Of a stretch of DNA of 64,000 nt, positions 23,191-63,032 are shown one piece after another. Location: positions 5,668-69,667 of the forward strand of contig JAJXYH010000004.1 in assembly GCA_021780675.1 (NCBI GenBank), written 5' to 3'. The notes beneath the pieces were generated by a model. The model had not been told where the DNA came from and ran no database searches. It saw only the letters and a list, made by a program, of their open reading frames with translations. The DNA comes from a bacterium. Lineage in GTDB: Bacteria; Patescibacteriota; Microgenomatia; Levybacterales; UBA12049. The translations under genes and the position numbers were made by a program. Every line of letters begins with the position of its first letter. The stretch's first letter is position 1.

Positions 23191-24492
23191 TTAAGGTTTA
23201 ATTAATTTGAATCCTCTTGTTTTTACTGTCTGTAGTTCAAAATTACTTTTTTGCAGTTTTAATTTTGTCCTTACTCTTCCCGCCAACTTATCAATTGCCC
23301 AGTCTGAAATTCCAAGCTCTGTTGCCTCCGGCCAAACAGTTTCTACAATTTTGTCCCTTTCACAGATTTGATTTTCATTTTCTTTTAAGTAATCAAAAAA
23401 TAGAAGTTCTTTTTTACTGAACTCTGCTCCGCTGTCTTTTGCCTCTTCCGTTACTCTTTCTTTAACAAAATATGAAAATAATGGGCTAAATATGTTATTT
23501 ATACCTGATCTTTGTATTACCATACCAACGTCCCAAAGATATGAAGCTTTATCTTTTTCCTGTTTTGAAACTCTATTGCCAGAGGAAATTTTAACCAATA
23601 TTTTTTGCTCATTCGTTGTTAAACTTTCCCAAATTTCTTCCGATTGAAGTCTAATTCTTTCATCACCAAGAAGAATTCGCTTTATGTCTTCTTGTTTTGA
23701 TATTTTAATCTCAGGATTGTGAAGTGCAATTAATCCAAGCTGGGCGTACTGAAAGTGACCATCAACAAGTTTTAAAAAGAATTTTTCAAGATCATCTGTT
23801 AATTTAACTTCATATCTTTTTTTATAAAGCCTTAATAAAATTAAACTATCGTCTTCTGCTGAAGGTTTAAAATAAATATTTTTGTAAAGAATTGATAAAG
23901 AAGAATTTTTATTAAGCTCGGGAGACAGATCGTTAAATGGAAGAAAACTGGTAAAAACATAGGTAAGCTGATAATGGGTAAATTCTCTAAGCCCTTCAAG
24001 GTTTGCAAATAATTGTGGTGTTAAAGCATTTTTTAACCTGTCAAACTTAATAAAAAATATTGTAGGAAGAAATCCTTCTTCTATAATTTTTTTAATAGAA
24101 AGCCTTACCGAGTCAATCGTAAAGAATAAATCTTGCAGCTGTATGCTTTCTAAAAAAAGTCCTCTAATTTCATTTTTTACACCCTCGTTAATATTTGAAT
24201 TTTCAATTGAGTCTACAACCCTTTTTAATGTAAGTGTCCAAAAGGGAGCTATGTCGCATTCTATTAAATCGTTTAAATTAACCGGTATAAAAAGGTGTTT
24301 GTCAGAATCTTGGAAATAGTTCTGAACTACATCCTTTCGGTTAATAAAAAAACTTAAAAAATTACCAATCCCAACTCTGGTAATGCCGATTAAAACAATT
24401 GATCTCCTGTTTGAAATATGTCCTGCCAAATCTTTAGCATCTTGGTATCTAAATATTAACGGTTGTTTATAGAGTACAGATGTCTTATCCAT
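23191..24492 (-). CDS. transcriptional regulator: N-terminal AAA-like NTPase domain (degenerate Walker A) fused to C-terminal OmpR/PhoB-type winged helix; paralog of 40480-41913
   Basis: C-terminal DKIVETVWPE...DWAIDKLAGRVRTKL...LQTVKTRGFKL is a trans_reg_C-like wHTH. N-terminal GITRVGIGNFL and FFIKFDRL resemble Walker A/B. Confidence 0.5.
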   Translation of the reverse strand: MDKTSVLYKQPLIFRYQDAKDLAGHISNRRSIVLIGITRVGIGNFLSFFINRKDVVQNYFQDSDKHLFIPVNLNDLIECDIAPFWTLTLKRVVDSIENSNINEGVKNEIRGLFLESIQLQDLFFTIDSVRLSIKKIIEEGFLPTIFFIKFDRLKNALTPQLFANLEGLREFTHYQLTYVFTSFLPFNDLSPELNKNSSLSILYKNIYFKPSAEDDSLILLRLYKKRYEVKLTDDLEKFFLKLVDGHFQYAQLGLIALHNPEIKISKQEDIKRILLGDERIRLQSEEIWESLTTNEQKILVKISSGNRVSKQEKDKASYLWDVGMVIQRSGINNIFSPLFSYFVKERVTEEAKDSGAEFSKKELLFFDYLKENENQICERDKIVETVWPEATELGISDWAIDKLAGRVRTKLKLQKSNFELQTVKTRGFKLIKP

Positions 24493-31965: not shown

Positions 31966-32361
31966 TTACTGAGTGTTTATGAGTGGAGGGGTTTTATATA
32001 TTGTTATTAAATTATTGAACCAATTTCTAGTTAAACCACCGTTAGAAGTTAAAAATTCCTCAAACTCTTTGTTTCCGGCATCTTTGTTTGATGGATTAAT
32101 ATATAAAGTAAATTCATTTTTTGCATAACTATAATATAGAGAAAAGTTTTTTCCACGATAAGGAAGTTTATTTAAAAGATTACCGGCGCTTACTCCCTTG
32201 TCTTGTTGAGATTGCTGCCCTTTTGTAATTGGGTTATTGTTTACAGGTTTAGCTGTGACGGGAGGCTTAGGACCAGAGTTTAGATACAAAACAATTCCAA
32301 TCAAGCAAATAATTAAAACAACTGACATCGCAAAGAGTGCGTATAAAGCTTTATTACTCAT
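31966..32361 (-). CDS. membrane-anchored hypothetical protein (last gene of T4SS-like operon)
   Basis: 131 aa, one N-terminal TM. Confidence 0.35.
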   Translation of the reverse strand: MSNKALYALFAMSVVLIICLIGIVLYLNSGPKPPVTAKPVNNNPITKGQQSQQDKGVSAGNLLNKLPYRGKNFSLYYSYAKNEFTLYINPSNKDAGNKEFEEFLTSNGGLTRNWFNNLITIYKTPPLINTQ

Positions 32362-32370
32362 ATTTACATT

Positions 32371-33510
32371 TTACTGTATCGGCCTAACCGGTACAAGCCA
32401 GTACCAACCAGTACCACCTAGGTATGCAGAATACCATTTAAATTCATTAGACAAAGACGTACAGCCATTTGGATCTCTCACGTGTATATCCACACCTCCT
32501 GAGGAATTAATTCTAACATCATCAACAACAAAAGAATGACCTCCATTAATTGGGGGCCAATAAGCACCAGCAAACAATAGATATCCATTGCTCAAATAAC
32601 TTTTAGCTTGTGTGTAATTTATTGATTGAGAACCAGACTTTAGATTTACGTGTGGATCTTCATATCCAAGAGACTTAAACCAGTTATCTTTTTGGGTAGA
32701 AAATGTCCAAAAACTTGTTCCCGTACGACCGCTTCCCGGTAGGTTGGACCACCCGTTTGTGTCAAAATCAGCCGCAATTTCTGCAGGTCCATGCGTGTCG
32801 CAATAGCTACTCATAATCATTGCCAAGCTGGTTGGGCCACAACCGGTACTAGCAATTGTTCCCGAATCAAAACGCCTACTTGAATAACTTTGCCCCCACT
32901 GACAATAAAATTTATTTGTTGGAGAAGCTTTGCAACCCGAACCTGGTGGTGTGGATGAGGACCCCGAACCGGGAGGCAGGCAACAGATTAAACCCTGCCC
33001 ACAAACTAACCCTCCGGTATCTTGTACCATTGGGGGAGTCAAGGTTGTGCAATCAGTGCCGGCAGGCTTACATAAAGAACCTGTAACGGATGAGCATTGT
33101 GTTGATTGGTTATTAGCTGTTGTTGTTGGTTGACCAGTAATAACAGTTATGATTGCAGTAAAAATGATTACCACCAGTATAACTACTACCACAATTAAAA
33201 CAGGAATAATCCAGGCAGGTGCAGAAGAGACAATTACCGTAGCAATTCGTCTTTTAACCTCTTTTTTTACCCTATCTTCCAGTTTGTTTTTTGCAGCACC
33301 ACCGATATTTCTTAACGTTCCTCCTCCTGGAATGTTGCCACCACTCTGTCTTCCAGACGCTTCGTCGTTGGTGTTACCGCTCCCTATATTTCCCGTAAGA
33401 TTTCTGGACAACCTATTAATTTTAACACCCTGTTTTAAAGTGTTTGGTTTATTTACGCCCTGTTTTAAGGTGTTAGGTGTAGGTTTTCCCGAACTACTAC
33501 TGTCTGCCAT
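32371..33510 (-). CDS. membrane-anchored C39-like/CHAP-like cysteine peptidase domain protein (candidate cell-wall hydrolase of the T4SS-like locus)
   Basis: CQWGQSY...STGCGPTSLAMIMSSY (Cys nucleophile in a C39/CHAP-like context) and a downstream GGHSFVVDDV His. N-terminal tandem repeat KPNTLKQGV x2, one TM, Cys-rich linker. Confidence 0.5.
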   Translation of the reverse strand: MADSSSSGKPTPNTLKQGVNKPNTLKQGVKINRLSRNLTGNIGSGNTNDEASGRQSGGNIPGGGTLRNIGGAAKNKLEDRVKKEVKRRIATVIVSSAPAWIIPVLIVVVVILVVIIFTAIITVITGQPTTTANNQSTQCSSVTGSLCKPAGTDCTTLTPPMVQDTGGLVCGQGLICCLPPGSGSSSTPPGSGCKASPTNKFYCQWGQSYSSRRFDSGTIASTGCGPTSLAMIMSSYCDTHGPAEIAADFDTNGWSNLPGSGRTGTSFWTFSTQKDNWFKSLGYEDPHVNLKSGSQSINYTQAKSYLSNGYLLFAGAYWPPINGGHSFVVDDVRINSSGGVDIHVRDPNGCTSLSNEFKWYSAYLGGTGWYWLVPVRPIQ

Positions 33511-33529
33511 AAATTAATAATACCAGATT

Positions 33530-35392
33530 TTAATCATTTACAATGTTTGGATGTGGTGAAGACGCAGGCATTGGGTCCGGAAGCTCAATGGGTTCTTCTT
33601 GCGGATTTTCTTCAACAACATCCTCAACCTCTTGCGGCTTCTTATCCTTATCTTGCGGATTAGTAGAAATCATATCATGTTCAAAAGGCGCTGCAACTAC
33701 TTGCATTGCAACGTGATTTTGCCCTGCGAAAAACAAACCCTCACCAATATTTGCAGACAGGAGTAGTTGCTTTTCTCCAACAGTTAAATAAAAAATATCA
33801 GCAATCATATCAACCTCTGCAGGACTTTGTTTTAAAAGCATTTGGATAGAAGAGTTGGAAAGCACAGCTTTTCCATAGTCGGTTGATAAAAAATCTTCGG
33901 CATCTTGAGTTGCTGTAGTTAATGCAAGATAGTATTTTCTTGCTCTTTTAGCAACACCATACACAAATGAGGCGGAATCTTCATGCTTCATCATATACCA
34001 GGCTTCATCAAGAATTAATAAGCGTTTTTTTAGGGTTTTTCTTACCTTTGTCCAAACAAAATCTAAAATTATATGCATTGCAATTGGTCTTAATTCATCC
34101 TCCAAAGCCTTAATATTAAAAACCGTAAAAGGATTGGTAATATCAAAGTTCGACTGTTGGTTAAAAAGGCCGCTTAGGCTTCCTTTAATAAATCTTTCCA
34201 GGCGTAAAGCAAGGTCTTTAGCCGCGTTATCTTCCATTCCCAAAAGAACTTTATAAAGATCTTCCATTAGTGGTGGGGTTTTCTTTTGTGTTTCAGGGTC
34301 GGTGGTAATTCCTTTTAATCTGTATGTTTCAACGAGTGCCCTATCTAAAATTGCATCATGTTGAGCATCAAGCTCACCAAGGACTATTTTTAAAAGTCCG
34401 TGTAGGGATAAGATTTTTAAACCAAGTTCATTTTCATCTTTTTCATAAAGTCCGGAAAGATCAAATGGGTTGATTTTTATATTTGAGCTTGATGCAAAAG
34501 TTACCTCCTCGCCACCCACAAGCTCTGATAATTTAGAATATTCACCTTCAGGATCTATGATTATGATTTCTGCACCAAACATAAAATTTCTTAATGCCTC
34601 AAGCTTAATTAAATATGATTTTCCCGCCCCCGATTTTCCAAACACAACTTCATTCGCGTTTTCCAAACTGAATCTATCAAAAATGATTAATGAACCGTTT
34701 TGTTGGTTTATCCCATACATGATTCCTTTATCTTGGGCCAAAATGGCTGAGGTAAAAGGAAAGGTTGAAGCAAGCGATGTGGTATCCATATTCCTGGTTA
34801 TAAAAAGCTTATCTTGACCAAGTGGGATGGTAGACTTAAACCCTTCTTCCATTTGAAGGGTTGCGGGTTTTGGAACCATAAGGATTGAGCTTAGTGTGGT
34901 TGTAAGTTTTTTAGAAGCTTCGTTTAAGTCCTCCAATTTTTCGGAAAAAAGCGTAATATAAAGACTAAATTGGAAAAATCTTTCCATGCCTTTAGCAAGT
35001 TCTTCTTGAACCGCAAGAGCATCTTCTAAAGAGGCGGAAACCTTTGGGTCTACCTGAAGACCTTCTTCTTCCTGAGAATAGATAGTCGCCTCCATTTCGG
35101 TAATTTTTCTTCTAAGATCTGATAAAACATCTGCAGAAGAAGTTGGATATAAGAACATAGAGACATTCATTGAATGATCAAAATTAATTAATGGCTCGAG
35201 CCAGTTTGCGGAAACAAACCTCGGATACCCAACAACAAACAAAGTTTTGTAATATTTTTCTCCTACGCGAATATGGTTAAAGTCTACTTCAACAGAAGGA
35301 GGCGCGATAACATCAGGAATAGAAACCAAATCTCGCTTGATATCTGGTTGTGCATCGTCGTTTTTTACAGTATTTTTTTTGCCGAAAGTCAT
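33530..35392 (-). CDS. virB4: VirB4/TrbE/CagE-family type IV secretion ATPase (ATPase part)
   Basis: IRVGEKYYKTLFVVGYPRFVSANWLEPL motif, Walker A FGKSGAGKSY, Walker B LLILDEAWYMM (DEAW). Confidence 0.75.
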   Translation of the reverse strand: MTFGKKNTVKNDDAQPDIKRDLVSIPDVIAPPSVEVDFNHIRVGEKYYKTLFVVGYPRFVSANWLEPLINFDHSMNVSMFLYPTSSADVLSDLRRKITEMEATIYSQEEEGLQVDPKVSASLEDALAVQEELAKGMERFFQFSLYITLFSEKLEDLNEASKKLTTTLSSILMVPKPATLQMEEGFKSTIPLGQDKLFITRNMDTTSLASTFPFTSAILAQDKGIMYGINQQNGSLIIFDRFSLENANEVVFGKSGAGKSYLIKLEALRNFMFGAEIIIIDPEGEYSKLSELVGGEEVTFASSSNIKINPFDLSGLYEKDENELGLKILSLHGLLKIVLGELDAQHDAILDRALVETYRLKGITTDPETQKKTPPLMEDLYKVLLGMEDNAAKDLALRLERFIKGSLSGLFNQQSNFDITNPFTVFNIKALEDELRPIAMHIILDFVWTKVRKTLKKRLLILDEAWYMMKHEDSASFVYGVAKRARKYYLALTTATQDAEDFLSTDYGKAVLSNSSIQMLLKQSPAEVDMIADIFYLTVGEKQLLLSANIGEGLFFAGQNHVAMQVVAAPFEHDMISTNPQDKDKKPQEVEDVVEENPQEEPIELPDPMPASSPHPNIVND

Positions 35393-36051
35393 TTTTCCAA
35401 TACCTCCTGCTCTGATGGCTTAACTAAATTTTCCGCCTGCTCAAAGTTAATATTGGCATCGTTAAATATTTCATAAAAAAGTTTTACTAATTTTTCCTTT
35501 CCCAGTATTTCAGCTCTTAAATTAACTCTTCCTATTTGGTTTAATAATCCTTCTGCTTTTGAGTGTAGGGCAGATTTTGCGCCAACCGCAAATAAATTTT
35601 GCTCAGAATTGACTCCCATTTGTTGAGAAACTCCACCGATACCGCTTTCCAAAGAAGAATAATAAATCACAATATAGAATTTTTTGTCAAGAATGGTATT
35701 AACCTTCACAAGTTCGGAGATAAAATCTTTATACATTGAGATATATTTTGAGAATAATGGATTTTTTGATTGTTGTGCCTCGTCTGCTAAGAGCTTTATA
35801 TACGATGAAATATTTACCCTTTTACTTCTTATGATTATTTGTACAGGGTAGGATATTGAATTCAAAAGCGCAGCATAAGCATAAATTTTAGCATCCTGTT
35901 CGTCAGGTGAAAGAAGTGCAAAGTTCGTGGCACTTATTTCAAGGACAATACATGCATAACCACCATTTAAAATTACCACATCATCAACAATATCCTGGAT
36001 TTCGGTAAATTTTTGGGTTGAGTTAGATAATTTTTGGGCAGAGCCTTTCAT
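35389..36051 (-). CDS. VirB4 N-terminal-domain-like protein (probable split N-terminal part of VirB4)
   Basis: The pattern VDDVVILNGGYACIVLEISATNFALLSPDEQDAKIYAYAALLNSISYPVQIIIRSKRV follows the CagE_TrbE_VirB N-domain logic. ATGA overlap with the downstream ATPase ORF. Combined length ~840 aa, close to canonical VirB4. Confidence 0.4.
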   Translation of the reverse strand: MKGSAQKLSNSTQKFTEIQDIVDDVVILNGGYACIVLEISATNFALLSPDEQDAKIYAYAALLNSISYPVQIIIRSKRVNISSYIKLLADEAQQSKNPLFSKYISMYKDFISELVKVNTILDKKFYIVIYYSSLESGIGGVSQQMGVNSEQNLFAVGAKSALHSKAEGLLNQIGRVNLRAEILGKEKLVKLFYEIFNDANINFEQAENLVKPSEQEVLEK

Positions 36052-37382
36052 TAATTAAAAAGAGACCTCCTTAATTCTTCTCTTGTATCTATTGATATAA
36101 TTTCAAGCGGCATAATTATTTCACCGGACGCTTTAAATCCTACCGTTTCAAACTTATTTTGTCCTCTTGGATCTTCAAATTCTATACTATAGTCACCGTC
36201 TGTAAGAGCAGTTGCAGAAGCAAATTGTCCCAAAGCGTTTGTTTTAAATGCCCTGACGGCATTTCCCTGTAAATCTTTTACCTCAACCAATATATTTGGT
36301 AGGGGGTTTCCTCTTGGATCTTTAACGATACCAGAAATAACATTTGGAAATTCAGGGGCAGCAACTAAACCAACACTTTTGGTTAAGTTTTGCGGAATAC
36401 TTCTCACTAATTTTGCTTCCTGTGGTTGTAGTTGTGCAATTTGTGGTATAGCAATATTTTGATTTTGCGAAGTCATTTGCTTTTGAATTTGTACTAATTT
36501 ATCTTCAAGTTGTTGTTTTTGAAGCTGCATATCGCTTAAGCTTTGCTGAAGTTCTAAAACTTTTTGATGGGCTTCTAAAAATTGTTTTTCATCTTGCTGC
36601 GAAACTGTTTGTAATGGCGCAGGTTGCGGCGGAGCGGGTAGTGGAGTAGTGGCTGTATCCGGTTTAGGCTTTAACTGCTGTGAGACGTCTTGAATTATTT
36701 CCGGAGTTTTTATTGTGGTGTCTATGGTATTTATAGCTGCTGCTGGTTTAACAGGGCTTGTAATATTGGGTAAAGTTGCCAGCTGTTCCACCGCTTCAGG
36801 TTGCGGAGCTTGATTTGAGTATGCGTGCTGCGGAATATAGCTCGGTAGGTTAACAGGCGTTCCACTTTTTTGATAATGATCAACATTTTGTAAAAACACC
36901 ATTTCTTTTTGGTCAAGCTTGCTGGCTGATTTGGGAAGTGTTTTCAAAAAACTTTGAAGCTGCTGATCGGACATATCAGAAATAGTTTGACGTTTTTTTG
37001 CAAAGTCACTAATTTTTTTTACCTCTTGTTCTTGTAACCCCTCCGAACCCTGTTGATAAATATATTGAGTAGGCTTAGTTAGGGCTTTTATTAAATGCGT
37101 TATCATTACATCAAGCGGCCTTCCGTCTATTGGTAAAAATGCCAAAGAGGCTCCCATAGCGGCAGAAAGAACAGCAAGGGGTATTTTAAGTAGAAAAAAA
37201 AGCGGAGAAATGTAAAAAACCCAAGCAACTATAAATCCCGCAGTAAGGTAGCCGAATTGTTTTATGGTCATACTCCCAATTAGTTTAAACTGGAATCCCG
37301 TAATGTCTTGTGGTATCGGATGGTTTTCGATGTCCATATAAAAAAGCATATAACGTGAAAAATCTGGTTTCAAGAGAATCAA
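36051..37382 (-). CDS. PrgI/VirB3-like membrane protein fused to Q/P-rich coiled region and a C-terminal carboxypeptidase-regulatory-like (transthyretin-fold) domain
   Basis: N-terminal IPQDITGFQFKLIGSMTIKQFGYLTAGFIVAWVF resembles the PrgI family. C-terminal GIVKDPRGNPLPNILVEVKDLQGNAVRAFKTNALGQFASATALTDGDYSIEFEDPRG resembles the CarboxypepD_reg fold. ATGA/ATG overlap with the next gene. Confidence 0.45.
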   Translation of the reverse strand: MILLKPDFSRYMLFYMDIENHPIPQDITGFQFKLIGSMTIKQFGYLTAGFIVAWVFYISPLFFLLKIPLAVLSAAMGASLAFLPIDGRPLDVMITHLIKALTKPTQYIYQQGSEGLQEQEVKKISDFAKKRQTISDMSDQQLQSFLKTLPKSASKLDQKEMVFLQNVDHYQKSGTPVNLPSYIPQHAYSNQAPQPEAVEQLATLPNITSPVKPAAAINTIDTTIKTPEIIQDVSQQLKPKPDTATTPLPAPPQPAPLQTVSQQDEKQFLEAHQKVLELQQSLSDMQLQKQQLEDKLVQIQKQMTSQNQNIAIPQIAQLQPQEAKLVRSIPQNLTKSVGLVAAPEFPNVISGIVKDPRGNPLPNILVEVKDLQGNAVRAFKTNALGQFASATALTDGDYSIEFEDPRGQNKFETVGFKASGEIIMPLEIISIDTREELRRSLFN

Positions 37383-37431
37383 AGTGGGTCAAAAGTCTTT
37401 GAAAGTATATCTAAATTTCCGTGAAAAATTC

Positions 37432-37752
37432 TTATCCGCAAGTTCTGAATGAGAATTCAAATGAAGTGGTGTCAATACACCCAACCCCTGTTACACTTCC
37501 TATAAATTTAATGATGAAAAATGACAGCATTACTAAAACTAACCCTAACACGGCAAAGGCAATTGTTTTTCTGGCTTGGTCAAGTTTCTTGGGATCACCC
37601 CCCGAAACTAAAAACCGTATTCCACCTATGATAATAACAATTACGGCAATAGATCCGGACAGTAAAATTCCCCAGTAAATAAAATTTAATATTATTATTG
37701 GTATACAACTAATTGTTGCAACCCCATTAGAACTACACGTTCTCCAGTCCAT
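37432..37752 (-). CDS. VirB2/TrbC-type T4SS pilin-like protein (short paralog)
   Basis: Shared C-terminal module: TM...SGGDPKKLDQARKTIAFAVLGLVLVML. Confidence 0.55.
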   Translation of the reverse strand: MDWRTCSSNGVATISCIPIIILNFIYWGILLSGSIAVIVIIIGGIRFLVSGGDPKKLDQARKTIAFAVLGLVLVMLSFFIIKFIGSVTGVGCIDTTSFEFSFRTCG

Positions 37753-37803
37753 GATTTAAGCTTAAAAGAAATAAAAACAAATTGCAAGTAGGTTTAGTTA
37801 TGT

Positions 37804-38202
37804 TTAGAAAGCTGTGGAGCCATTAATGTTTGGAATGACGACATTAGACAATGTATTAAGTCCAAAGAACTGGAGTATTAAGTTCAAAACCAAGTATGAA
37901 AGGAATATGATTACCAAACCAACGATTGCTGCAACAATATGTTCTCTAGCCGAAGCAACAGCTTGTTTGTCTCCGCCGGATGTTAACCATTTAAATCCTC
38001 CCCAAACAAGATAGAGAAGTGCAACTAAAATTGCTACTGCAAAAATTAAAGCAATCACAGTACCAACGATTGAACCGATATTATTGGAGCTTAAAGCACA
38101 AAGATGATTATATGGTCCTGCACATGCATCAACAGCAAAAGCAGGAACTGTAACTGTAAGAAATACTGCTGCGGGGGTAACCAGTGCGATTGCTTTTTTC
38201 AT
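37804..38202 (-). CDS. VirB2/TrbC-type T4SS pilin-like protein
   Basis: Signal peptide (AFA-VD). C-terminal LYLVWGGFKWLTSGGDKQAVASAREHIVAAIVGLVIIFLSY. Confidence 0.6.
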   Translation of the reverse strand: MKKAIALVTPAAVFLTVTVPAFAVDACAGPYNHLCALSSNNIGSIVGTVIALIFAVAILVALLYLVWGGFKWLTSGGDKQAVASAREHIVAAIVGLVIIFLSYLVLNLILQFFGLNTLSNVVIPNINGSTAF

Positions 38203-38271
38203 GTATATATTTATACTAATAAAGTTTTGATTTGTTTGTCAAGTACCAATTTAGCTTCAATTTAACATTAA

Positions 38272-39003
38272 TTAAAGAGTCGGTACGTTAAAAAACTGTA
38301 AGATAAGATTTACAATCAAAGCAGCAAGAAATACTATAATCAAACCAACGATTGCAAAAATAACTTTTTGTCTGGCAGAGGTTAAAGTCTGTTTGTTTCC
38401 ACCGGACATTAACCAGTCAAATCCTCCCCAGACCAGGTAAAAAAGCGCAAGAAGAATTGCAATTACAAACAAAATGTTTATTCCGAAGGCAAGAGCAGTA
38501 TTGTATTTTACAATAGGTACTCCGCCCGGCTGTCGCGCTTTAAAGAAATTTGCCAAAGTATCTAAAGCAACTGCGGGATTAACTTCGCCCCAATTCCCCC
38601 AACTGTTACCGGTTTGAGTACCATTATTATTTGAAATACATCCTGCAGAATGATCACATTTGTCTCCGGTTGAGCAGGTTAATGTTATTATATTGCAGGT
38701 TGTTCCTTGTGGGGCACCACTGCTTGGAAAGCAATTCTGAGTGGTTCCTTCCCAGTTGCAGTTTTGTGGACAGGTTTTACAATTCCCGCCAGAAGCAACA
38801 CAACAAACTCCCAATCCACCCTGACCACCTAATGAACAGACCCTAGTACTATCAACATATTGATTCGCTTGGCCACAAGTTGTTACACCGTTTGCTACGC
38901 AATCCAGGCATCCTGGAGGAAGGAGCGCTCCTTGGGCAACAGGGGTTTTAATCACGAAAATAAATAATAATAAAAAACTAAAAAAATAAAATAATTTTTT
39001 CAT
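38272..39003 (-). CDS. VirB2/TrbC-type pilin-like protein with Cys-rich N-terminal ectodomain
   Basis: Signal peptide, ~25 Cys in the ectodomain. C-terminal FYLVWGGFDWLMSGGNKQTLTSARQKVIFAIVGLIIVFLAAL. Confidence 0.6.
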   Translation of the reverse strand: MKKLFYFFSFLLLFIFVIKTPVAQGALLPPGCLDCVANGVTTCGQANQYVDSTRVCSLGGQGGLGVCCVASGGNCKTCPQNCNWEGTTQNCFPSSGAPQGTTCNIITLTCSTGDKCDHSAGCISNNNGTQTGNSWGNWGEVNPAVALDTLANFFKARQPGGVPIVKYNTALAFGINILFVIAILLALFYLVWGGFDWLMSGGNKQTLTSARQKVIFAIVGLIIVFLAALIVNLILQFFNVPTL

Positions 39004-39005
39004 AA

Positions 39006-40454
39006 TTATTGATTAAAAATATTTAATATATCAACTCCAATGAAATTCATAAGGGTAAATGTAAAAATTATTAGAACCAGTCCTACAATTGCTGCAGTTA
39101 ATTGCTCCTGCGCATCTTTAGTTTTTTCGGGGTTTCCTTGTGAAACTATTAATTTATAAGCGGAGTAAATTATTAAAAGTGTTGCGATTCCGCCTGCAAT
39201 AGATAAAATAATTGAAAAGATTTTTGAAACTAACCCCTGAGAATCAGTGCTAAAATTACCAAATGCTGTTGGGCAAGTTGTTATATATTTCCCGTTCACA
39301 AGGGTTGTCGTGCAGGGAAGTTGACCGTTGGTAAATCCAGAACCAAGCCCCCCTCCACAACCAACCCCTTCAACGCACTGACTGGAGCTACAGCTTTGGT
39401 AAGTTGGAGAAGTAGTCAAAGCGGGTATATCTGGATGACTTTGTCTAGTACATTTTTGATTTTCCTGATTGGCAAGACTATTAAAAGTATAACCGCTAGG
39501 GCAGACAGCACAGTCTGTTCCTCCTCCTCTGCAGTGTGTTGCAGTACAGTCTGAAGCGCTGGTATAAGCCCCTGTCCCCGTACCTGTATGCACTACGCAT
39601 CCATATTGTGTGCAGTCATACCCGCCGCGGTTTGCATCAGCAGACCAAGTGCAACAGGTTTGAGTTGCGGCGCTTTGGCTTTTGCAGTAGGCGTTTCCAC
39701 TTGAGGTTATAATTCCCCCTGCTTGATGGCAGACGTTATTATTAGCTACACACTCTCCATCTCCTCCAGCGGGTGCAAAAGACTGGCAGGTTGGCGGTTC
39801 ACACTTGTTGGTTTTTAAATTACAGGTGTAACCTGTGTTTGCCCCACTACAGCTTCCATCAGCATTAGCGCTACAGGAGACTGTTAAATTGCAGTTCTTA
39901 TTGTAAACTAATCCACAATTTTTTGTGCCGCAAATTGCTGCTTGAGTGCAGCTTGGTGAAACGCATTTGCCGCTTCCCTGGTCCCATGAATAACCAGAAC
40001 TGCAAAGGCATTCTAAAATCGGTACCGCACCCGATTGGTTTGAATCTATACAGTTTAAACCAAGATTTGGTTTACATTGATACGTTCCATCGCAAGATTG
40101 ACCATAAGTTTTGTAATATGTGCAAACTCCAGTAGTTTTATTGGTATAAGCGAGAATAGAATTGCACGTACACATGCCATTTGGAGTGTAATATGTGGTG
40201 CAAGTTTGTTTACCTGTTGTGGGGTCGGTGACACATGTTTCATGTGAAGTATCTGTAGGGTTACTACAATACGTTGGGTAGCAACAAATACCAGGTGTTG
40301 CACCGCACGGCGCATTGGTGTTGGGCGTGCAATCTACCGCGGCAGCTGCCCAGGCATTATTTTTTAAAGGGGCTAAAGTAAAAAATAATATAAATAATAA
40401 AATTGCAGGAAACAAAAACTTAAGCAAACGCTTCATAAAATTATAGTAGAACAA
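39006..40454 (-). CDS. VirB2/TrbC-type pilin-like protein with large (~400 aa) Cys-rich ectodomain
   Basis: Signal peptide, about 60 Cys. C-terminal AYKLIVSQGNPEKTKDAQEQLTAAIVGLVLIIFTF pilin module. Confidence 0.55.
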   Translation of the reverse strand: MFYYNFMKRLLKFLFPAILLFILFFTLAPLKNNAWAAAAVDCTPNTNAPCGATPGICCYPTYCSNPTDTSHETCVTDPTTGKQTCTTYYTPNGMCTCNSILAYTNKTTGVCTYYKTYGQSCDGTYQCKPNLGLNCIDSNQSGAVPILECLCSSGYSWDQGSGKCVSPSCTQAAICGTKNCGLVYNKNCNLTVSCSANADGSCSGANTGYTCNLKTNKCEPPTCQSFAPAGGDGECVANNNVCHQAGGIITSSGNAYCKSQSAATQTCCTWSADANRGGYDCTQYGCVVHTGTGTGAYTSASDCTATHCRGGGTDCAVCPSGYTFNSLANQENQKCTRQSHPDIPALTTSPTYQSCSSSQCVEGVGCGGGLGSGFTNGQLPCTTTLVNGKYITTCPTAFGNFSTDSQGLVSKIFSIILSIAGGIATLLIIYSAYKLIVSQGNPEKTKDAQEQLTAAIVGLVLIIFTFTLMNFIGVDILNIFNQ

Positions 40455-40479: not shown

Positions 40480-41913
40480 TTAGTCTACGAATTTAAAACC
40501 ACGCCCTTTAACAGTTAAAATATGAATTGGGCTGTTAGGGTTATTTTCAATTTTTTTTCTCAACCTAAAAATTAATTGATCTAAAGCCTGGTCGGTTACA
40601 CCCAACGTGGTTTTTTGGTTTCCCCAAACAGCGTTAATGATGTCTTCTTTTTCTAAAATCTTTTCTTTCTGAGAGATTAAAAATTTTAATAACTTAAATT
40701 CGGAAGAAGTTAAATTATCGGAAATTACACCTTCGCCCAGTTTAATTTCATTAGTGTTTTCATCAACAGTTAATTTAAGACCGGTTTTTACAGTTTGGGA
40801 TTTAATAATTGCGTTTTTAATAAATTCTCCAAATAGCGGAATTGTTACTTTTCCACCGGAAACAAGGAAGATTTTTTCTAAAAAAGGTTGTTGTTCTTTG
40901 TTGTCGATAAAATATTGCTGCTCTGAAGGGTTTAAACTGTTCCAGATAGAGAAAAGCGAGCTTCTTACCGGGCGCTGTGAAAGCAAATAAGTTATTAATT
41001 GGTTGTTTTCGGAAATTAATTTTTTTTCGGCGGTAAGTGCCGATTCAAGCGAAAGAATGGTTAGTCTTCCGTGTCCTGCAGTTAATTTTGATATTTCATC
41101 AAGCATTTTTTTATCGACTTTTTTATTGATTATTTTTTCAAGATATGAAATTCTAAAATCAAGACCCGGCTTGTCTAAGATGGGCAAATAGATAATTTTT
41201 TCCGCCAAATATTCAAAAAAATCGGCAAAAAGCATTGGTTCAGTTACATCTTCGAGGGGTTTATTTAAAGAAAATACAGCAGAAAAATAATATTTTGCCC
41301 TGTTTCTTAAAACTCTAAGGTTGGCAAAAAATTCGTTTGTGAGCATCGGAATATATTCTTCGAATCTATCAAAAAGGAGAATCAGTTTTAAATTTCTTTC
41401 AACACATAAATAGTCAATTGTTTTTTTAAGGCCTGCAAAAAGCACCATTTCATCGTTGAACCCGATACTCTCTTTAAAATAGTTATTAATTACTTCGTAC
41501 TCTTTTTTTAAACCTCTTTCGCGCAAGGAATCTAAAATTCCCAAGAAGATAAATTTATTTGCATCAAATAACGGTCTTTTTCTAATTTCGGAAAAGTTTA
41601 AAAGGACAAAATGAAAATTTTTCTGATTTTCCCCAAGATGAATAAGTCTTACTTTTTTATTGTAAGAAAGGAGCCCCAAAAGATTAGATCTGCCAACACC
41701 CGGAATAGATACGACTTGACAGGAATTGCCCTCTTTTATAAATTTGAGAATTTTTTCAATTTCTTCAAATCTTGAATTTTGCGGGTATAAACTTTCGAAA
41801 TGTTCTGTTTCCATAAAGATATTGTAATTTTTTTGTAATACAAATATCAAGCTAAAAAATTCCCGCGGATTTAAAATTTTGGCATATGAAAGAACGCGGA
41901 GATGAATTGACAA
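40480..41913 (-). CDS. transcriptional regulator: AAA-like NTPase domain (GVGRSN Walker A variant) + C-terminal OmpR/PhoB-type winged helix; immediately upstream of pilin operon
   Basis: VVSIPGVGRSNLLGLL, LILLFDRFEE. C-terminal INAVWGNQKTTLGVTDQALDQLIFRLRKKI...ILTVKGRGFKF. The true start is probably the internal METEHF. Confidence 0.5.
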   Translation of the reverse strand: MSIHLRVLSYAKILNPREFFSLIFVLQKNYNIFMETEHFESLYPQNSRFEEIEKILKFIKEGNSCQVVSIPGVGRSNLLGLLSYNKKVRLIHLGENQKNFHFVLLNFSEIRKRPLFDANKFIFLGILDSLRERGLKKEYEVINNYFKESIGFNDEMVLFAGLKKTIDYLCVERNLKLILLFDRFEEYIPMLTNEFFANLRVLRNRAKYYFSAVFSLNKPLEDVTEPMLFADFFEYLAEKIIYLPILDKPGLDFRISYLEKIINKKVDKKMLDEISKLTAGHGRLTILSLESALTAEKKLISENNQLITYLLSQRPVRSSLFSIWNSLNPSEQQYFIDNKEQQPFLEKIFLVSGGKVTIPLFGEFIKNAIIKSQTVKTGLKLTVDENTNEIKLGEGVISDNLTSSEFKLLKFLISQKEKILEKEDIINAVWGNQKTTLGVTDQALDQLIFRLRKKIENNPNSPIHILTVKGRGFKFVD

Positions 41914-44282
41914 ACCAGGCTAATTCCTTTAGTCTTGAAGGAAGAGGAGGTATTATGCCGGACGGAGGAACACCAGAACAACCAGAGCCAAATTTAAGTC
42001 CAGAAATAAGCGGAGATGCGTTAGCGTCGTCAAATAATTCTGTTGCAAGACTTGAAGAGTTAGCGGGAGAAGGCTCCGGAGAGAGAATTAGAGAAGAGCA
42101 AAAAAAATCCCAAAGAAAATTTTTGGAAAGTCAAGAATCCGATAGGCTGCCAAGATCATTTGAAGACTTGGTCGGGAAAATAATGAATTCGGCAGAAGCG
42201 CAGTGGAAAGAAGATGGAGATCAGGCATTAATAGATAAAGAGGGAAATATTAATAAAGAAAATTTTTTAGCCTGGGTAAGAGATAGGATGATGTGGCTTC
42301 ATGATTTTAATTCGGTTACTGAGACCAGCTTTTTTTCCGACGTTAACATAACTGTTGGTTATGCCAAAATTACCCTTTACGATATGATTTTTACCGGTAA
42401 ATACTTTTTACACGAAGTAAAGGGTAATGATGGAAATATTTCTTACCATAAAAGTGATGATCTTGAAAAACTTAAAGATCAGCTTATAAACGAAGCATTT
42501 CTTTTTGGAAATTCCAGAAATAATGATGTTAAGTATAAGTCGATGATGCCTAATGAAGCAGAACTTCCAAAACTCTTGCAACAAATATATTTTGCTAACC
42601 CGTTTTTAAGAGGCAGCAACTTTCAGGATATTTTAACACTTAATTCTGTTGATAAAAATAGAATTCAACAGCTAAGAGATGAATCCGGCAATGTTGCAGA
42701 GTTTGATAAAAACAGGATTAAAAATCTGGTTGAAAAAGATTCAAGTGTTGGAGAAGGGGTAAGAAGAGCACTCCTTGCCTATTACCACATACGTGATATT
42801 GAGATGCTTAAAAAAATATTTGAGGTGGAGGAAGGTAAAAAAATTCAGAATTTAGCTCTTTTTATGGAAGGATACGATGATTATGATTCAAAAACTTTAA
42901 GACTTGCAGTTGATGAAAATGGCGCAAATAAACCTAAGAAAAAGGGTGAAGCAAATCAGGATTTAAAAGACACAGAAGCAGCGGAAAATATCCCCGATGG
43001 GGAAAAAACTTCAGTTGAATACGATAGCGATGGGAAAGTTAAGTTAGATACTAAAGCCCAAATCAAACGATTTACGGATTATATGAATCCATTTAATTTG
43101 GCCAGAAAAGAGGAAAGACAAGAAGGTGAAATTCGGGAAAGAATTAGGCAATCAATAATGCAGGTAACAGGACTTACTTATTCGGAAGCAAAATATGCAG
43201 AGTCATGGGCGTATTCAATGGCCAGATGGACGGGAATTGGCGCAAGAAACGATACGGGAGCCGCTGCATTTGATGCATGGAGTAAACCGCAAAATTTACT
43301 TCCATACAGACTTAAGCAGCTGGAAGATAAAAGACTGGGTGTATTTGGGAATAAGTTTAATCTGGCAGGAATTAAAAGAGCAGGACTTACGATGTTTGAG
43401 GGGATTTCCGATATCCATGGCAGAAATATTATAGAGGCAATTCAGGGAGGACAAGGAATGGAATTTAACGCAGATAATCCGTTTAAAACCACAGATGCAA
43501 AAACAAATCTTGCTTTTGGAAAAGATACAGGAAGCTTTTTTGTTAGTAATCATGTGATGAACTCATTTAAGATCTACGATTTTATAATTAACCATACAGA
43601 CTTTAATATCGAAGATATGATTACATATGATACTTTTGGAAGGCCGATAATCGACCATGAAAAAGCGGATAAAATAATTGATGGTATTCAAAAGGCTATC
43701 AGGTACGCGTATTGCACATGGGATGGGATAAACTACAACAAATCTATAAGAGTTATGGAAAAAGATGTGGATGGAAACGATGAAATAAAAGAAATGCCAC
43801 TTATTGCAGCGATGTTTGGACCCGATATTTTAAAAATGATCCAAAACGATATTAGTGAGAGGGAAGCAAGGCTTAAGCCAGGAGAGTCTTTAACACGGGG
43901 CGTAAGAACTAATATTTGGACAATTGCTCCTGATCACGATAATTTCCAGATGGATATGGAAAAAGTACAATCGAAAGCTGTTAGGGAAGTGCTTTGGAAA
44001 AGTATATTACAGTACTTAATCGCAGAAGAAGTACATTCACATAGAAGCAGGGCCAGTGAAGAAACAAGGTATGGCTATGATATGGTAGAAAAGGTGTACG
44101 ACTTCTTAAGAAGAAAAGGCATTGCCGATAAAGCGGAAATTGATGAGATGCGAAAACTTAGTAATTCTACTCTTAGGGTATTAAATATAGAAGATTTTGT
44201 AATGGAGGCAGGTAAAGGAACACTTAAAGGTTTTTGGAGTATGATGAGAATAATAATGAGCGGTCTTATGACAGGGAAGTAA
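41886..44282 (+). CDS. large soluble hypothetical protein (798 aa), divergent from the regulator
   Basis: No TM and no recognisable catalytic motifs. Acidic N-terminus. The start may be the downstream MPDGGTPEQ. Confidence 0.4.
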   Translation: MKERGDELTNQANSFSLEGRGGIMPDGGTPEQPEPNLSPEISGDALASSNNSVARLEELAGEGSGERIREEQKKSQRKFLESQESDRLPRSFEDLVGKIMNSAEAQWKEDGDQALIDKEGNINKENFLAWVRDRMMWLHDFNSVTETSFFSDVNITVGYAKITLYDMIFTGKYFLHEVKGNDGNISYHKSDDLEKLKDQLINEAFLFGNSRNNDVKYKSMMPNEAELPKLLQQIYFANPFLRGSNFQDILTLNSVDKNRIQQLRDESGNVAEFDKNRIKNLVEKDSSVGEGVRRALLAYYHIRDIEMLKKIFEVEEGKKIQNLALFMEGYDDYDSKTLRLAVDENGANKPKKKGEANQDLKDTEAAENIPDGEKTSVEYDSDGKVKLDTKAQIKRFTDYMNPFNLARKEERQEGEIRERIRQSIMQVTGLTYSEAKYAESWAYSMARWTGIGARNDTGAAAFDAWSKPQNLLPYRLKQLEDKRLGVFGNKFNLAGIKRAGLTMFEGISDIHGRNIIEAIQGGQGMEFNADNPFKTTDAKTNLAFGKDTGSFFVSNHVMNSFKIYDFIINHTDFNIEDMITYDTFGRPIIDHEKADKIIDGIQKAIRYAYCTWDGINYNKSIRVMEKDVDGNDEIKEMPLIAAMFGPDILKMIQNDISEREARLKPGESLTRGVRTNIWTIAPDHDNFQMDMEKVQSKAVREVLWKSILQYLIAEEVHSHRSRASEETRYGYDMVEKVYDFLRRKGIADKAEIDEMRKLSNSTLRVLNIEDFVMEAGKGTLKGFWSMMRIIMSGLMTGK

Positions 44283-49193: not shown

Positions 49194-49991
49194 ATGGATA
49201 AAATAATTGAAGTTAAAAATCTTATTAAGAAGTTTAAAGATTTTAAAGCGGTAGACGATGTTACTTTTGAAGTTGAAAAAGGAGACATTTTTGCCTTTTT
49301 AGGACCTAATGGTGCAGGTAAAACAACCACCATAAAAATGCTAACCACGCTTTTAAAACCAACAGCAGGAGAAATTTTATTAGATAATATTAATGTAATT
49401 AAACATCCTGAAAACGCAAGAAAAAACTTCGGCATCGTATTTCAAGACCAAAGTTTGGATGATGAATTAACGGCATTAGAAAACATGGAATTCCACGCCG
49501 TTCTTTATGGAGTTGGTAAGAATCTTAGAGAAAAAAGAATTGAAGAACTTTTAAATTACGTTGAACTTTGGGACAGGAGAAAGTCTTTGGTTAAAACATT
49601 TTCCGGTGGGATGAAAAGGCGTTTGGAAATTGCACGCGGACTTTTGCATCATCCCAAAATTCTGTTTTTAGATGAACCGACTTCGGGTTTAGACCCGCAG
49701 ACCAGGAATTATATTTGGGACTATATTGCCAAATTAAACAAAAAAGAGGATATAACGGTGTTTTTTACAACACATTACATTGAAGAGGCGGAAAAATATT
49801 CTAAAACAATTGCCATAATGGATCATGGAAAAATAATTGCCAAGGAGTCCCCGCAGAAGTTAAAAGAGCAGACGAAAACAGACAGTTTGGAAGCAGCATT
49901 TCTGGCATTAACCGGAAATAACATTAGAGATGAAGATGCCAACGGGATAGATCAGCTTAGAAATCATAGAAAAATGTGGAGGGGGCATTAA
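49194..49991 (+). CDS. ABC transporter ATP-binding protein
   Basis: Walker A GPNGAGKTT, signature FSGGMKRRLEIA, Walker B LFLDEPTSGLD. Confidence 0.85.
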   Translation: MDKIIEVKNLIKKFKDFKAVDDVTFEVEKGDIFAFLGPNGAGKTTTIKMLTTLLKPTAGEILLDNINVIKHPENARKNFGIVFQDQSLDDELTALENMEFHAVLYGVGKNLREKRIEELLNYVELWDRRKSLVKTFSGGMKRRLEIARGLLHHPKILFLDEPTSGLDPQTRNYIWDYIAKLNKKEDITVFFTTHYIEEAEKYSKTIAIMDHGKIIAKESPQKLKEQTKTDSLEAAFLALTGNNIRDEDANGIDQLRNHRKMWRGH

Positions 49992-49992
49992 T

Positions 49993-62576: not shown

Positions 62577-62625
62577 ATAAAAAAGGATTAGATTGTATTA
62601 TCAACCTAATCCTTTAATTTGTGGA
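62575..62625 (+). repeat. 51-bp direct repeat copy 2: tmRNA terminator hairpin (62581-62617) plus tmRNA 3' end
   Basis: See 61591-61641. Confidence 0.75.
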
Positions 62626-63032
62626 GATGTCGGGAAGTGATCCCGAGTCCAAGAATGTAATGTAAAAAAATCTACAAGCTTATTCTACTTTTAAAAGTCG
62701 CAATATTTTTTTCCAGTAGAAGGGAATAAATACTGCCAAGATTATAAATTCGATAAGGACTCAATCAAATTCCTTATTAATTCTTAGGCTAAGTTTATGC
62801 CCAAAATTTTCCACCTAAGCGAGAAAATAAAGGACATCTCAAAGCTTACTTAAGCAGCTAGTGCTAAAGCAGGTCGAGAACCATAAAGTTCGGCGAGAAT
62901 TGCGTCTCTTTCCGCCTTTAAGGCTGAAATGCTATTTTTAGCATTTATTGTTTGATTATTCTTTAGCGTCTATTAATCAAAGACGGCTTGCGTTTTTTAA
63001 AGTGCGAATCTTGTCGATGCAATTGCATCCCC
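62622..63032 (-). ncRNA. ssrA: tmRNA (ssrA)
   Basis: On the minus strand: 5' GGGGATG pairs with 3' CATCTCC-A (tRNA-like acceptor), T-arm-like CGGG-ATCACTT-CCCG. An internal tag reading frame ends ...GCT TTA GCA CTA GCT GCT TAA = ...ALALAA*. Adjacent to smpB. Confidence 0.7.

Follow-up and report, generated by a model that had tools for sequence, protein, structure and literature searches.

A predicted membrane-anchored Peptidase_C39_2-family cysteine peptidase in the T4SS gene cluster of a Patescibacteria chromosome

Organization of the peptidase locus

We analysed a 64,000-nucleotide stretch of contig JAJXYH010000004.1 (the window), in which a minus-strand open reading frame encodes a 379-residue protein of the Peptidase_C39_2 family. 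The frame is real; it starts with the ATG at 33508-33510 and stops with a TAA at its 32371 end. The choice of this ATG is backed by a homologue, P0003, which begins MASSTGSG as compared with MADSSSSG in the window protein. An identical protein (P0001) was found on seven contigs, including GCA_021833605.1. The peptidase gene and its neighbours were assigned as follows.

35389..40454, minus strand: remaining T4SS cluster, comprising a TraC-like protein of 220 aa, a PrgI/VirB3 plus CarboxypepD_reg protein of 443 aa and four T4SS_pilin proteins (Pfam)
33530..35392, minus strand: VirB4-type T4SS ATPase, 19 nt upstream of the peptidase start (Pfam P-loop_TraG, 7.7e-28; DUF87; AAA_10)
32371..33510, minus strand: predicted membrane-anchored Peptidase_C39_2-family cysteine peptidase, 379 aa (ORF list, Pfam PF13529)
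31966..32361, minus strand: downstream partner, a 131-aa protein with an N-terminal transmembrane (TM) helix and a conserved C-terminal domain of ~65 aa (tblastn, alignment)

The Pfam matches on the neighbouring genes bear out the T4SS-like operon setting that the original prediction had proposed. The cluster is tight, lies on one strand and adjoins dnaN/dnaA. Its four T4SS_pilin (VirB2-like) proteins measure 106, 132, 243 and 482 aa, and two of them carry long Cys-rich N-terminal extensions. The 131-aa partner gene begins 9 nt past the peptidase stop, and its product matched nothing in Pfam or PHROG. None of the neighbouring genes scanned from 21 to 55 kb was recognised as a relaxase, coupling protein or glycosidase. 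The sole ABC genes found, at 49194..50739, are of the ABC-2 type and lie 16 kb from the peptidase.

The catalytic domain

The following features were assigned in the C-terminal half of the protein.

32374..32916, minus strand: catalytic papain-fold domain, aa ~199-379
32470..32892, minus strand: Pfam C39_2 match, aa 207-347
32902..32904, minus strand: C203, with its putative disulfide partner C350 at 32461..32463 (co-occurrence)
32899..32901, minus strand: Q204, predicted oxyanion-hole glutamine (conservation, analogy with PeiR Q84)
32839..32841, minus strand: C224, predicted nucleophile in GCGPTSLAM (conservation)
32536..32538, minus strand: H325, predicted general base in GGHSFVV (conservation)
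32473..32475, minus strand: D346, predicted third triad member in a DP motif (conservation)

Three families had been named as candidates for this domain: CHAP, Peptidase_C39_2 and NlpC/P60. Only Peptidase_C39_2 was matched above its gathering threshold (PF13529; 26.7 bits, cutoff 24; E = 9.1e-6; match to profile positions 11-142 of 143), whereas neither CHAP (PF05257) nor NlpC-P60 (PF00877) was listed at E ≤ 10. The latter two were also missing from the top structural neighbours and from the families matched by 11 close homologues (alignment A3), all 11 of which matched Peptidase_C39_2, with a best E of 3.6e-17. The PF13529 score of the window protein itself lies barely over the gathering threshold. 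Other searches returned little: single-sequence phmmer against the PDB gave spurious TM-segment matches only, NCBIfam gave only sub-threshold, TM-driven matches, and PHROGs gave no match for the peptidase.

Residue conservation was assessed in a 64-sequence alignment and in a set of 262 C39_2 domains. The Cys and downstream His that the original prediction had singled out correspond to C224 (64/64 and 259/259 rows) and H325 (64/64 and 261/261 rows), both invariant among the aligned homologues, and D346 is likewise invariant (64/64 and 261/261 rows). The family profile places C224 on PeiR C90 and aligns H325 with PeiR H181 and D346 with the PeiR DP motif. Q204 is invariant in the 64-sequence alignment and present in 249 of 250 non-gap rows of the larger set. 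By analogy with PeiR Q84, it is predicted to contribute to the oxyanion hole, although the Gln-to-Cys spacing is 20 aa in the window protein compared with 6 aa in PeiR or papain. Across the 262 domains, C203 and C350 occur together in 118 and are both missing in 111, with 33 mixed cases. This co-occurrence suggests a probable C203-C350 disulfide.

A first AlphaFold model of the full-length protein, built from 11 sequences, reached a pLDDT of 62.5, and its Foldseek E-values were at least 0.02. In a model of aa 130-379 based on the 64-sequence alignment, the catalytic domain had pLDDT values mostly between 85 and 96 and adopted a papain-like alpha+beta fold with the Cys at a helix N-terminus. 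The resemblance to papain-like C39 enzymes that had been proposed is therefore supported by the Pfam match, the conserved Gln, Cys, His and Asp, and the modelled fold. The structural neighbours include interbacterial papain-like toxins, namely 9l5u, CdiA-CT 8ssm and the C39-like T6SS effector 9jdd.

The N-terminal tail, membrane anchor and stalk

Four kinds of feature precede the catalytic domain.

33223..33510, minus strand: N-terminal tail, aa 1-96, predicted cytoplasmic, disordered and G/N/S/K-rich (composition, charge, pLDDT)
33454..33477, minus strand: repeat copy 1, PNTLKQGV, aa 12-19
33424..33447, minus strand: repeat copy 2, PNTLKQGV, aa 22-29
33136..33222, minus strand: single TM helix, aa 97-125, predicted type II signal-anchor (hydropathy, model)
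32980..33096, minus strand: six-Cys module C-x7-C-x6-C-x15-C-x5-CC, aa 139-177, a stalk between membrane and enzyme (pattern scan)

The protein has one strongly hydrophobic stretch, residues 97-125, where the mean KD value rises to as much as 3.57; residues 101-125 were modelled as a helix (pLDDT 80-88). This predicted membrane anchor is preceded by the basic stretch KNKLEDRVKKEVKRRIA, and its C-terminal flank is uncharged. The tail has a net charge of +11, and in the full-length AlphaFold model its residues 1-70 had pLDDT values of 35-43, followed by a helix at 72-93. By the positive-inside rule, the tail is predicted to lie inside the cell. All 11 Cys of the protein are C-terminal to the TM helix. 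The predicted topology consists of a cytoplasmic tail, one TM helix, and an external six-Cys module followed by the catalytic domain.

An exact duplication of KPNTLKQGV had been reported at the N-terminus. The duplication is indeed exact, but its unit is the 8-mer PNTLKQGV; the 9-mer occurs only once, as copy 1 is preceded by T rather than K. In 2000 shuffles of the protein, no exact 8-residue repeat arose, the maximum being seven residues in two shuffles. The two copies differ at 4 of 24 nucleotide positions, all of them synonymous third positions, which indicates conservation of the repeat as a peptide and not a recent DNA duplication. P0003, which is 37% identical to the window protein, contains three copies of the motif. 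A search of the six frames of the window and of 247 homologues found the motif only in these two proteins, and we do not claim a wider motif family.

The six-Cys module also precedes the C39_2 domain in P0003, P0105, P0143 (in two copies), P0146 and P0150. In model 1, it contains beta strands at 146-149 and 174-178 (pLDDT 71-85). BLASTP without composition correction gave weak compositional matches between this stalk and the Cys-rich extensions of the two long pilins (E 0.002-5), and homology between them is not claimed.

Domain fusions and gene order among relatives

The C39_2 family is catalogued among endolysin catalytic domains (PMC8223927). In relatives, the C39_2 domain is joined to Amidase_2, SLT, Transglycosylase-like, M23, SpoIID and Phage_lysozyme2 domains, as well as to the combination of GH25, PG_binding_1 and SH3_3; P0155, for example, combines SLT with C39_2. 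In P0170 and P0244, the C39_2 domain lies C-terminal to VirB2-like pilin domains, and a Saccharibacteria locus (L040) encodes an 861-aa pilin-C39_2 fusion directly downstream of VirB4. In a second Saccharibacteria locus (L042), the genes after VirB4 encode first a VanY-like protein and next a Phage_lysozyme2 plus C39_2 protein.

Diverse CPR contigs share the gene order VirB4, zero to two genes, C39_2, small TM protein, dnaN, and the adjacency of VirB4, C39_2 and the small partner is kept over divergent CPR lineages at 25-45% identity. The 131-aa partner lies directly downstream of the C39_2 gene in L005, L007, L008, L010-L013 and L015-L017 (tblastn E 1e-10 to 1e-19). VirB4-linked C39_2 genes are also present in Firmicutes loci, and at some syntenic loci a C39_2 gene borders VirB4 without an adjoining pilin array.

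A TM or signal segment starts at or before residue 25 in 113 of the 247 homologues. Many syntenic orthologues have a signal peptide alone, which looks cleavable, and may be released. Such release would be compatible with either target, a different cell or the wall of the producer itself.

Comparison with known systems

The VirB1 role is filled in TraG (pIP501) and PrgK (pCF10) by SLT/muramidase plus CHAP domains. TraG (SLT and CHAP), PrgK (LytM, muramidase and CHAP) and Orf14 of Tn916 represent the VirB1-like hydrolases of Gram-positive systems. Every known VirB1 homologue of Gram-positive systems is anchored in the membrane and exposes its enzymatic domains outside the cell, and in some of them an N-terminal domain lies inside (PMC12857230). 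The window protein shares with them a gene in the T4SS cluster and, by prediction, an intracellular N-terminal segment, a TM helix and an extracellular papain-like Cys/His peptidase. Unlike TraG, PrgK and Orf14, it has no glycosidase domain, and its peptidase is of the C39_2 type rather than CHAP or NlpC/P60. Set beside the VirB1-role hydrolases of monoderm T4SSs (ALPHA, BETA and DELTA classes), it has no recognisable glycan-cleaving domain: neither the protein nor the scanned neighbours matched SLT, lysozyme or glucosaminidase. No recognised peptidoglycan-binding domain was found in the protein either. In an HMM survey of Patescibacteria, VirB1 homologues were mostly not associated with VirB4, and the C39_2 type was not retrieved as VirB1 (PMC12102498).

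A related arrangement exists in the Saccharibacteria member Southlakia epibionticum (Wang et al. 2023, PMC10633639), in which SEML1_0006, like the window gene, lies downstream of virB4 and by dnaN/dnaA. SEML1_0007 is annotated as a DD-peptidase and SEML1_0006 as lysozyme-like plus cysteine proteinase, and both are essential by Tn-seq (PMC10633639, Tables S1/S2; PMC12102498). The gene order at L042 mirrors that of SEML1_0007/SEML1_0006, and the L042 equivalent of SEML1_0006 is the Phage_lysozyme2 plus Peptidase_C39_2 protein. The Saccharibacteria type has one or two lysozyme-like domains before the peptidase and a large DD-peptidase companion, whereas the window protein is a peptidase only, with an added tail, TM helix and Cys-rich stalk; SEML1_0006 was compared by annotation and synteny.

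Relative to PF13529 (clan CA, papain-like; PDB 3erv, a putative C39-like peptidase of Bacillus anthracis), of which it is a near-threshold member, the window protein adds the 96-aa repeat-bearing tail, the signal-anchor and the six-Cys stalk, and roughly half of the relatives lack its probable disulfide pair. The Pei enzymes of methanogen viruses (PeiR, PeiW and PeiP; PDB 8z4h) are similar in the catalytic domain. The family profile matches PeiR at E = 2e-5 with the Cys, His and Asp aligned, although identity is only 17%. PeiR, whose catalytic dyad is C90 and H181, cuts analogues of wall isopeptides and does not cut double-glycine peptides (PMC13642728). The C39 scaffold can diverge in function, as illustrated by a methanogen C39-like protein with glycosidase-like activity (PMC13642728). 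The Pei enzymes are soluble lysins with N-terminal pseudomurein-binding repeats that target archaeal pseudomurein, whereas the window protein is bacterial, predicted to be membrane-anchored and devoid of such (PMBR) repeats, and is encoded by dnaA/dnaN on a CPR chromosome.

The C39 domains of PCAT, ComA and LahT (PF03412) are cytoplasmic, fused to ABC exporters, and cut double-glycine leaders. Identity with this classical type was rejected, as the window protein showed no PF03412 match at E ≤ 10 and no ABC fusion, and its domain is predicted to face the other side of the membrane. Among the 11 close homologues, only one matched PF03412, weakly.

Proposed function

We consider it reasonably probable that the window gene encodes a wall-cutting accessory enzyme, in a VirB1 role, for the Gram-positive-type T4SS/pilus machine of an ultrasmall bacterium of the Patescibacteria (CPR). 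Family membership, fold, conservation of the catalytic residues, operon context and conserved synteny are established. The T4SS-linked wall hydrolase of the original prediction is further supported by the peptidoglycan-hydrolase fusions of relatives, the virB4 synteny and the predicted VirB1-like architecture and, indirectly, by the essentiality of the syntenic SEML1_0006 and SEML1_0007. The topology, the peptidoglycan substrate, a target in the nearby wall of the producer itself and the roles of the tail repeat and Cys-rich stalk are inferred.

The protein would be inserted in the cytoplasmic membrane by one signal-anchor helix (aa 97-125), keeping the disordered basic 96-aa tail in the cytoplasm and presenting the disulfide-rich stalk and Peptidase_C39_2 domain outward. 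The putative Cys224-His325-Asp346 triad, with Gln204 in the oxyanion hole, would then most likely cut peptidoglycan, at a peptide or isopeptide bond in its stem or its cross-link. Such cleavage would occur locally, beside the co-expressed VirB4/VirB3/VirB6-type channel, and would open a path through the wall by which channel and pilus can be assembled or substrates can pass. Against this reading speak the near-threshold Pfam score, the lack of glycosidase and peptidoglycan-binding domains, the long Gln-to-Cys spacing, the signal-peptide-only orthologues that may be released and the functional divergence known from the C39 scaffold.

The same enzyme might instead be aimed at the host, cutting host peptidoglycan at the contact site while on or beside the T4SS pilus, or after being shed. 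In that case the epibiont would use it for offence or penetration, to let the T4SS or pilus through or to release wall nutrients, rather than for self-remodelling. The pilin fusions described above (P0170, P0244 and the 861-aa protein of L040) would place an enzyme outside or on the pilus, the orthologues with only a cleavable-looking signal peptide and the N-terminal segments of the 113 homologues fit this reading, and interbacterial toxins are among the structural neighbours. Moreover, epibiotic growth requires the Patescibacteria T4SS, which has no relaxase or coupling protein (PMC10633639; PMC12102498). However, an uncleaved signal-anchor that follows 96 residues appears to keep the window protein in the membrane of its producer, the stalk (about 70 residues) is short for an enzyme that must reach the wall of another cell, the protein has no recognisable secretion signal or toxin-delivery domain, and an immunity role for the conserved downstream protein is hypothetical. 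We therefore regard a host target as possible but unlikely for this protein.

A processing protease acting at the outer membrane face, which would mature the four VirB2-like pilin precursors or another T4SS substrate in the manner of a double-glycine C39, appears very unlikely. The many relatives in which the domain is fused to a bona fide peptidoglycan hydrolase or peptidoglycan-binding domain point to the wall as substrate, and PeiR, the nearest solved structure, has wall isopeptide rather than double-glycine specificity. The arguments given above against a PCAT-type enzyme (PF03412, ABC partner, membrane side) apply here too, as does the occurrence of VirB4-adjacent C39_2 genes at loci with no adjacent pilin array.

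Finally, a housekeeping autolysin of growth or division, placed near the replication origin with an accidental T4SS adjacency, would accord with the large size of the family (6373 representatives at E ≤ 1e-3), with the 59 of 80 genome loci that have no VirB4 within 8 kb (tblastn) and with the fact that origin-near genes are often just highly expressed (PMC12102498), but the gaps of 19 and 9 nt within a same-strand cluster, the gene order kept in divergent CPR lineages, the T4SS-pilin fusions and the VirB4-linked Firmicutes genes make it highly improbable.

Implications for Patescibacteria

Taken alone, the window supports a sound and fairly ordinary annotation of a known family with unusual decorations, and offers no surprise. 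The C39_2 lineage as a whole combines a conserved position after virB4, varied architectures (stand-alone or fused to lysozyme, SLT or pilin domains) and a small conserved partner. It is a testable candidate for the crossing of the wall, the producer's own or the host's, by the Patescibacteria T4SS, whose VirB1-type wall hydrolase is, according to a published survey, in most cases absent or not linked to virB4 (PMC12102498).

A more speculative proposal, which we hold to be distinctly unlikely, is that the C39_2 peptidase and the 131-aa membrane protein constitute an enzyme/regulator pair for this T4SS. The peptidase would be host-wall-piercing or pilus-associated, the small protein would restrain its activity on the self wall, and the PNTLKQGV tail would couple it to VirB4. 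If this were true, C39_2 enzymes would supply the "VirB1" that is missing from most Patescibacteria and would act directly as effectors in epibiotic parasitism.

Gene neighbourhood and N-terminal repeat

The peptidase gene belongs to a same-strand cluster spanning 41913 down to 31966. The T4SS-like operon setting of the original prediction was borne out, as pilins, PrgI/VirB3, a TraC-like protein, and VirB4 share its strand.

Genes of the T4SS cluster, in gene order
40480..41913, minus: Trans_reg_C protein, 477 aa, cluster head; domain at the extreme C-terminus
39006..40454, minus: T4SS_pilin (VirB2-like), 482 aa; pilin domain aa 404-472
38272..39003, minus: T4SS_pilin (VirB2-like), 243 aa; pilin domain aa 176-234
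minus: T4SS_pilin (VirB2-like) proteins, 132 and 106 aa
36051..37382, minus: PrgI/VirB3 + CarboxypepD_reg protein, 443 aa
minus: TraC-like protein, 220 aa
33530..35392, minus: VirB4-type ATPase, 620 aa
32371..33510, minus: peptidase, 379 aa
31966..32361, minus: small membrane protein, 131 aa

The peptidase ATG lies 19 nt past the VirB4 stop, and 9 nt separate the peptidase stop from the 131-aa ORF. The start codon is backed by the N-terminus of the homologue P0003 (MASSTGSG versus MADSSSSG in the peptidase). Homologues in this region were found for the minus-strand frame only; the overlapping plus-strand ORFs are shadow ORFs. An exact KPNTLKQGV duplication had been described at the N-terminus. 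The duplication exists, with PNTLKQGV as its exact unit (aa 12-19 and 22-29); the 9-mer is seen once, with T preceding copy 1. An exact 8-mer repeat arose in 0 of 2000 shuffles of the peptidase sequence, the DNA of the two copies shows four synonymous third-position differences and no replacement sites, and P0003 (37% identical) carries three copies of the motif. These observations indicated a genuine repeat that is conserved as a peptide.

The cluster agrees with published descriptions of Patescibacteria T4SSs, which are MPF-FATA-like, with pilin arrays, without a relaxase, and adjoining dnaA (PMC12102498; PMC10633639). The ORFs scanned between 21000 and 55700 of the window included no recognisable VirD4-type coupling protein, relaxase, or VirB1-type glycosidase; seven large ORFs there (798, 594, 573, 570, 456, 992, and 176 aa) lack any Pfam match. 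The 482- and 243-aa pilins have long, very Cys-rich, signal-peptide-led N-terminal regions ahead of the extreme C-terminal pilin domain, and contain 42 and 14 Cys, respectively, over the whole proteins. In the 443-aa PrgI/VirB3 protein, a Q/P-rich linker occupies the centre and a CarboxypepD_reg (Ig-like) domain the C-terminus, an extension unusual for a VirB3-type protein; this combination is also found at the CPR locus L005. The 477-aa protein, which may regulate the T4SS cluster, and a second Trans_reg_C protein (433 aa, 23191..24492, minus) have an OmpR-type winged-helix C-terminus and long N-terminal regions without a recognised receiver domain. Divergent from the cluster is the 798-aa ORF (41886..44282, plus), which shares its first 28 nt (41886-41913) with the 477-aa ORF as listed from a TTG start. 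Public contigs call a shorter, 444-aa gene instead, so mechanical start choice may have created the overlap.

The cluster meets dnaN convergently, with dnaA, rnpA, yidD, and yidC further on, and over its full length the window resembles a stretch of CPR chromosome surrounding the replication origin. A single base separates the convergent stop codons of dnaN (plus, end 31964) and the gene for the small membrane protein (minus, end 31966), leaving no space for separate terminators. The window also contains a full-length tmRNA (102.8 bits, 62619..63032, minus) and six tRNA genes (7631, 46306, 47102, 49001, 51173, 57854), and no rRNA. An identical peptidase occurs in MAG GCA_021833605.1 and several metagenome contigs; the closest named relatives belong to the Microgenomates group of CPR bacteria (Daviesbacteria, Levyibacteriota, Roizmanbacteria).

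Family and catalytic residues

The protein had been called C39/CHAP-like. The C39 part held, with a Peptidase_C39_2 (PF13529) Pfam match scoring 26.7 bits, where the gathering score is 24, and matches in 11/11 nearest homologues (best E=3.6e-17). The CHAP part did not; CHAP, NlpC/P60, and PF03412 gave no match in the peptidase by HMM search, even at E<=10. The peptidase is a Peptidase_C39_2 member, and the features tested are not those of CHAP/NlpC-P60 enzymes or of PCAT-type C39 domains. The family is large, since an exhaustive profile search returned 6373 cluster representatives at E<=1e-3 (150 at E<=1e-30).

Both predicted motifs, GCGPTSLAM with C224 and GGHSFVV with H325, are present. All sequences of a 64-member alignment share Q204, C224, H325, and D346, which are also constant in essentially all 262 domains from 247 homologues. 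Across these domains, C203 and C350 occur together in 118, are both absent in 111, and are mixed in 33, a co-occurrence suggesting a subfamily disulfide.

The family profile matched the pseudomurein endoisopeptidase PeiR in the PDB (E=2e-5). PeiR has a C90 and H181 catalytic dyad with Q84 as the oxyanion residue, and cuts wall isopeptide analogues, not double-glycine leader peptides (PMC13642728; PMC4592898). In the profile alignment, the family Cys/His align to C90/H181, and the DP motif to the PeiR DP. By this alignment, the Cys and His would occupy a papain-like site, and nothing in it spoke against their superimposing on one.

Architecture and topology

The G/N/S/K-rich tail (aa 1-96, net charge +11) is disordered in the model except for a helix at 72-93. 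The sole strongly hydrophobic segment (aa 97-125, KD up to 3.57) forms a TM helix flanked by KNKLEDRVKKEVKRRIA on the N side and an uncharged T/Q/N stretch on the C side, for which the positive-inside rule predicts an N-in/C-out signal anchor. All 11 cysteines are C-terminal to this helix, as would suit an oxidising environment outside the cytoplasm. A six-Cys module (aa 139-177, C-x7-C-x6-C-x15-C-x5-CC) precedes the catalytic domain (aa ~199-379), as in the homologues P0003, P0105, P0143 (twice), P0146, and P0150. The Cys-rich regions of the pilins resemble this stalk in composition only.

Synteny and fusions in relatives

The order VirB4, zero to two genes, C39_2, small TM protein, convergent dnaN, and dnaA recurs at the loci of P0002, P0003, P0006, and P0007, and in CPR loci L011-L013 and L015-L017; peptidase identity is just 25-35% at some syntenic loci. 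L024, L040, and L042 have VirB4 upstream of C39_2 and dnaN/dnaA downstream, L031 has just the upstream VirB4, and the small-protein search gave no match at any of the four loci.

The small membrane protein (131-163 aa) lies directly downstream of the C39_2 gene in the window and other CPR loci (L005 8765-9244; L007 4147-4584; L010 1166-1591; L011-L013; L015-L017). A TM helix at the N-terminus is followed by a variable linker rich in P/T/S and then by a conserved C-terminal domain of ~65 aa, with the approximate pattern 'LPY.G.nFsL.Y....F.l......aGn.EFd.FLk.ngv.sR.Wi.nL'. The protein has no match in Pfam or PHROG, and could be the peptidase's partner, its regulator, or its inhibitor.

VirB4 lies within 8 kb at 21 of 80 genome loci, several from Firmicutes. 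The Firmicutes contigs with VirB4 a few kb away (L033, L050, L061, L070, L071, L074, L082, L087, L088) are from Clostridia, Lachnospiraceae, and Tissierellia. C39_2-type peptidases may also serve conjugative elements of Firmicutes.

C39_2 has been catalogued among endolysin catalytic domains (PMC8223927). Its fusion partners among the homologues are Amidase_2, SLT, a Transglycosylase-like domain, Peptidase_M23, SpoIID, GH25 + PG_binding_1 + SH3_3, Phage_lysozyme2 (with or without GDSL), and T4SS_pilin. Natural fusions of a VirB2-like T4SS_pilin with a C-terminal Peptidase_C39_2 (P0170, P0244, and L040 5898-8483, plus), which in Saccharibacteria L040 lie directly downstream of VirB4, suggest a wall peptidase displayed on the pilus or at its base. 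In Saccharibacteria L042, the genes after VirB4 encode first a VanY-like protein of 1002 aa and then a Phage_lysozyme2 + C39_2 protein of 443 aa. The same layout is found in S. epibionticum, where SEML1_0007 is annotated as DD-peptidase-like and SEML1_0006 as lysozyme-like (twice) plus 'cysteine proteinases', both Tn-seq-essential (PMC10633639 Tables S1/S2).

Proposed role

With family, fold, catalytic-residue conservation, operon position, and conserved synteny established, we consider it probable that the peptidase plays the VirB1 role. It would be tethered in the membrane with its catalytic domain outside, where the Cys-His-Asp site would cut peptide bonds in the peptidoglycan adjoining the T4SS, presumably in the producer's own wall. 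Monoderm VirB1 hydrolases all have a membrane anchor and catalytic domains outside the cell, often with an intracellular N-terminal segment (PMC12857230). Compared with Gram-positive VirB1-type hydrolases, the role would be alike, but the enzyme is a peptidase without a glycosidase domain, and C39_2 replaces CHAP. At Saccharibacteria T4SS loci, the homologous peptidase domain is instead fused to a phage-type lysozyme.

The pilin-C39_2 fusions and orthologues with a signal peptide only lend support to the same enzyme being directed at the host wall, a reading that we regard as unlikely. A protease processing pilin or another substrate is more doubtful still, and a housekeeping autolysin unrelated to the T4SS is very improbable.

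As a probable VirB1-type wall peptidase, the protein represents a known family in a variant architecture, and the call is unsurprising to a specialist. C39_2 enzymes appear to supply the wall-cutting component widely across Patescibacteria T4SS loci and to have escaped searches with VirB1 HMMs, and this apparent oversight makes the call useful.
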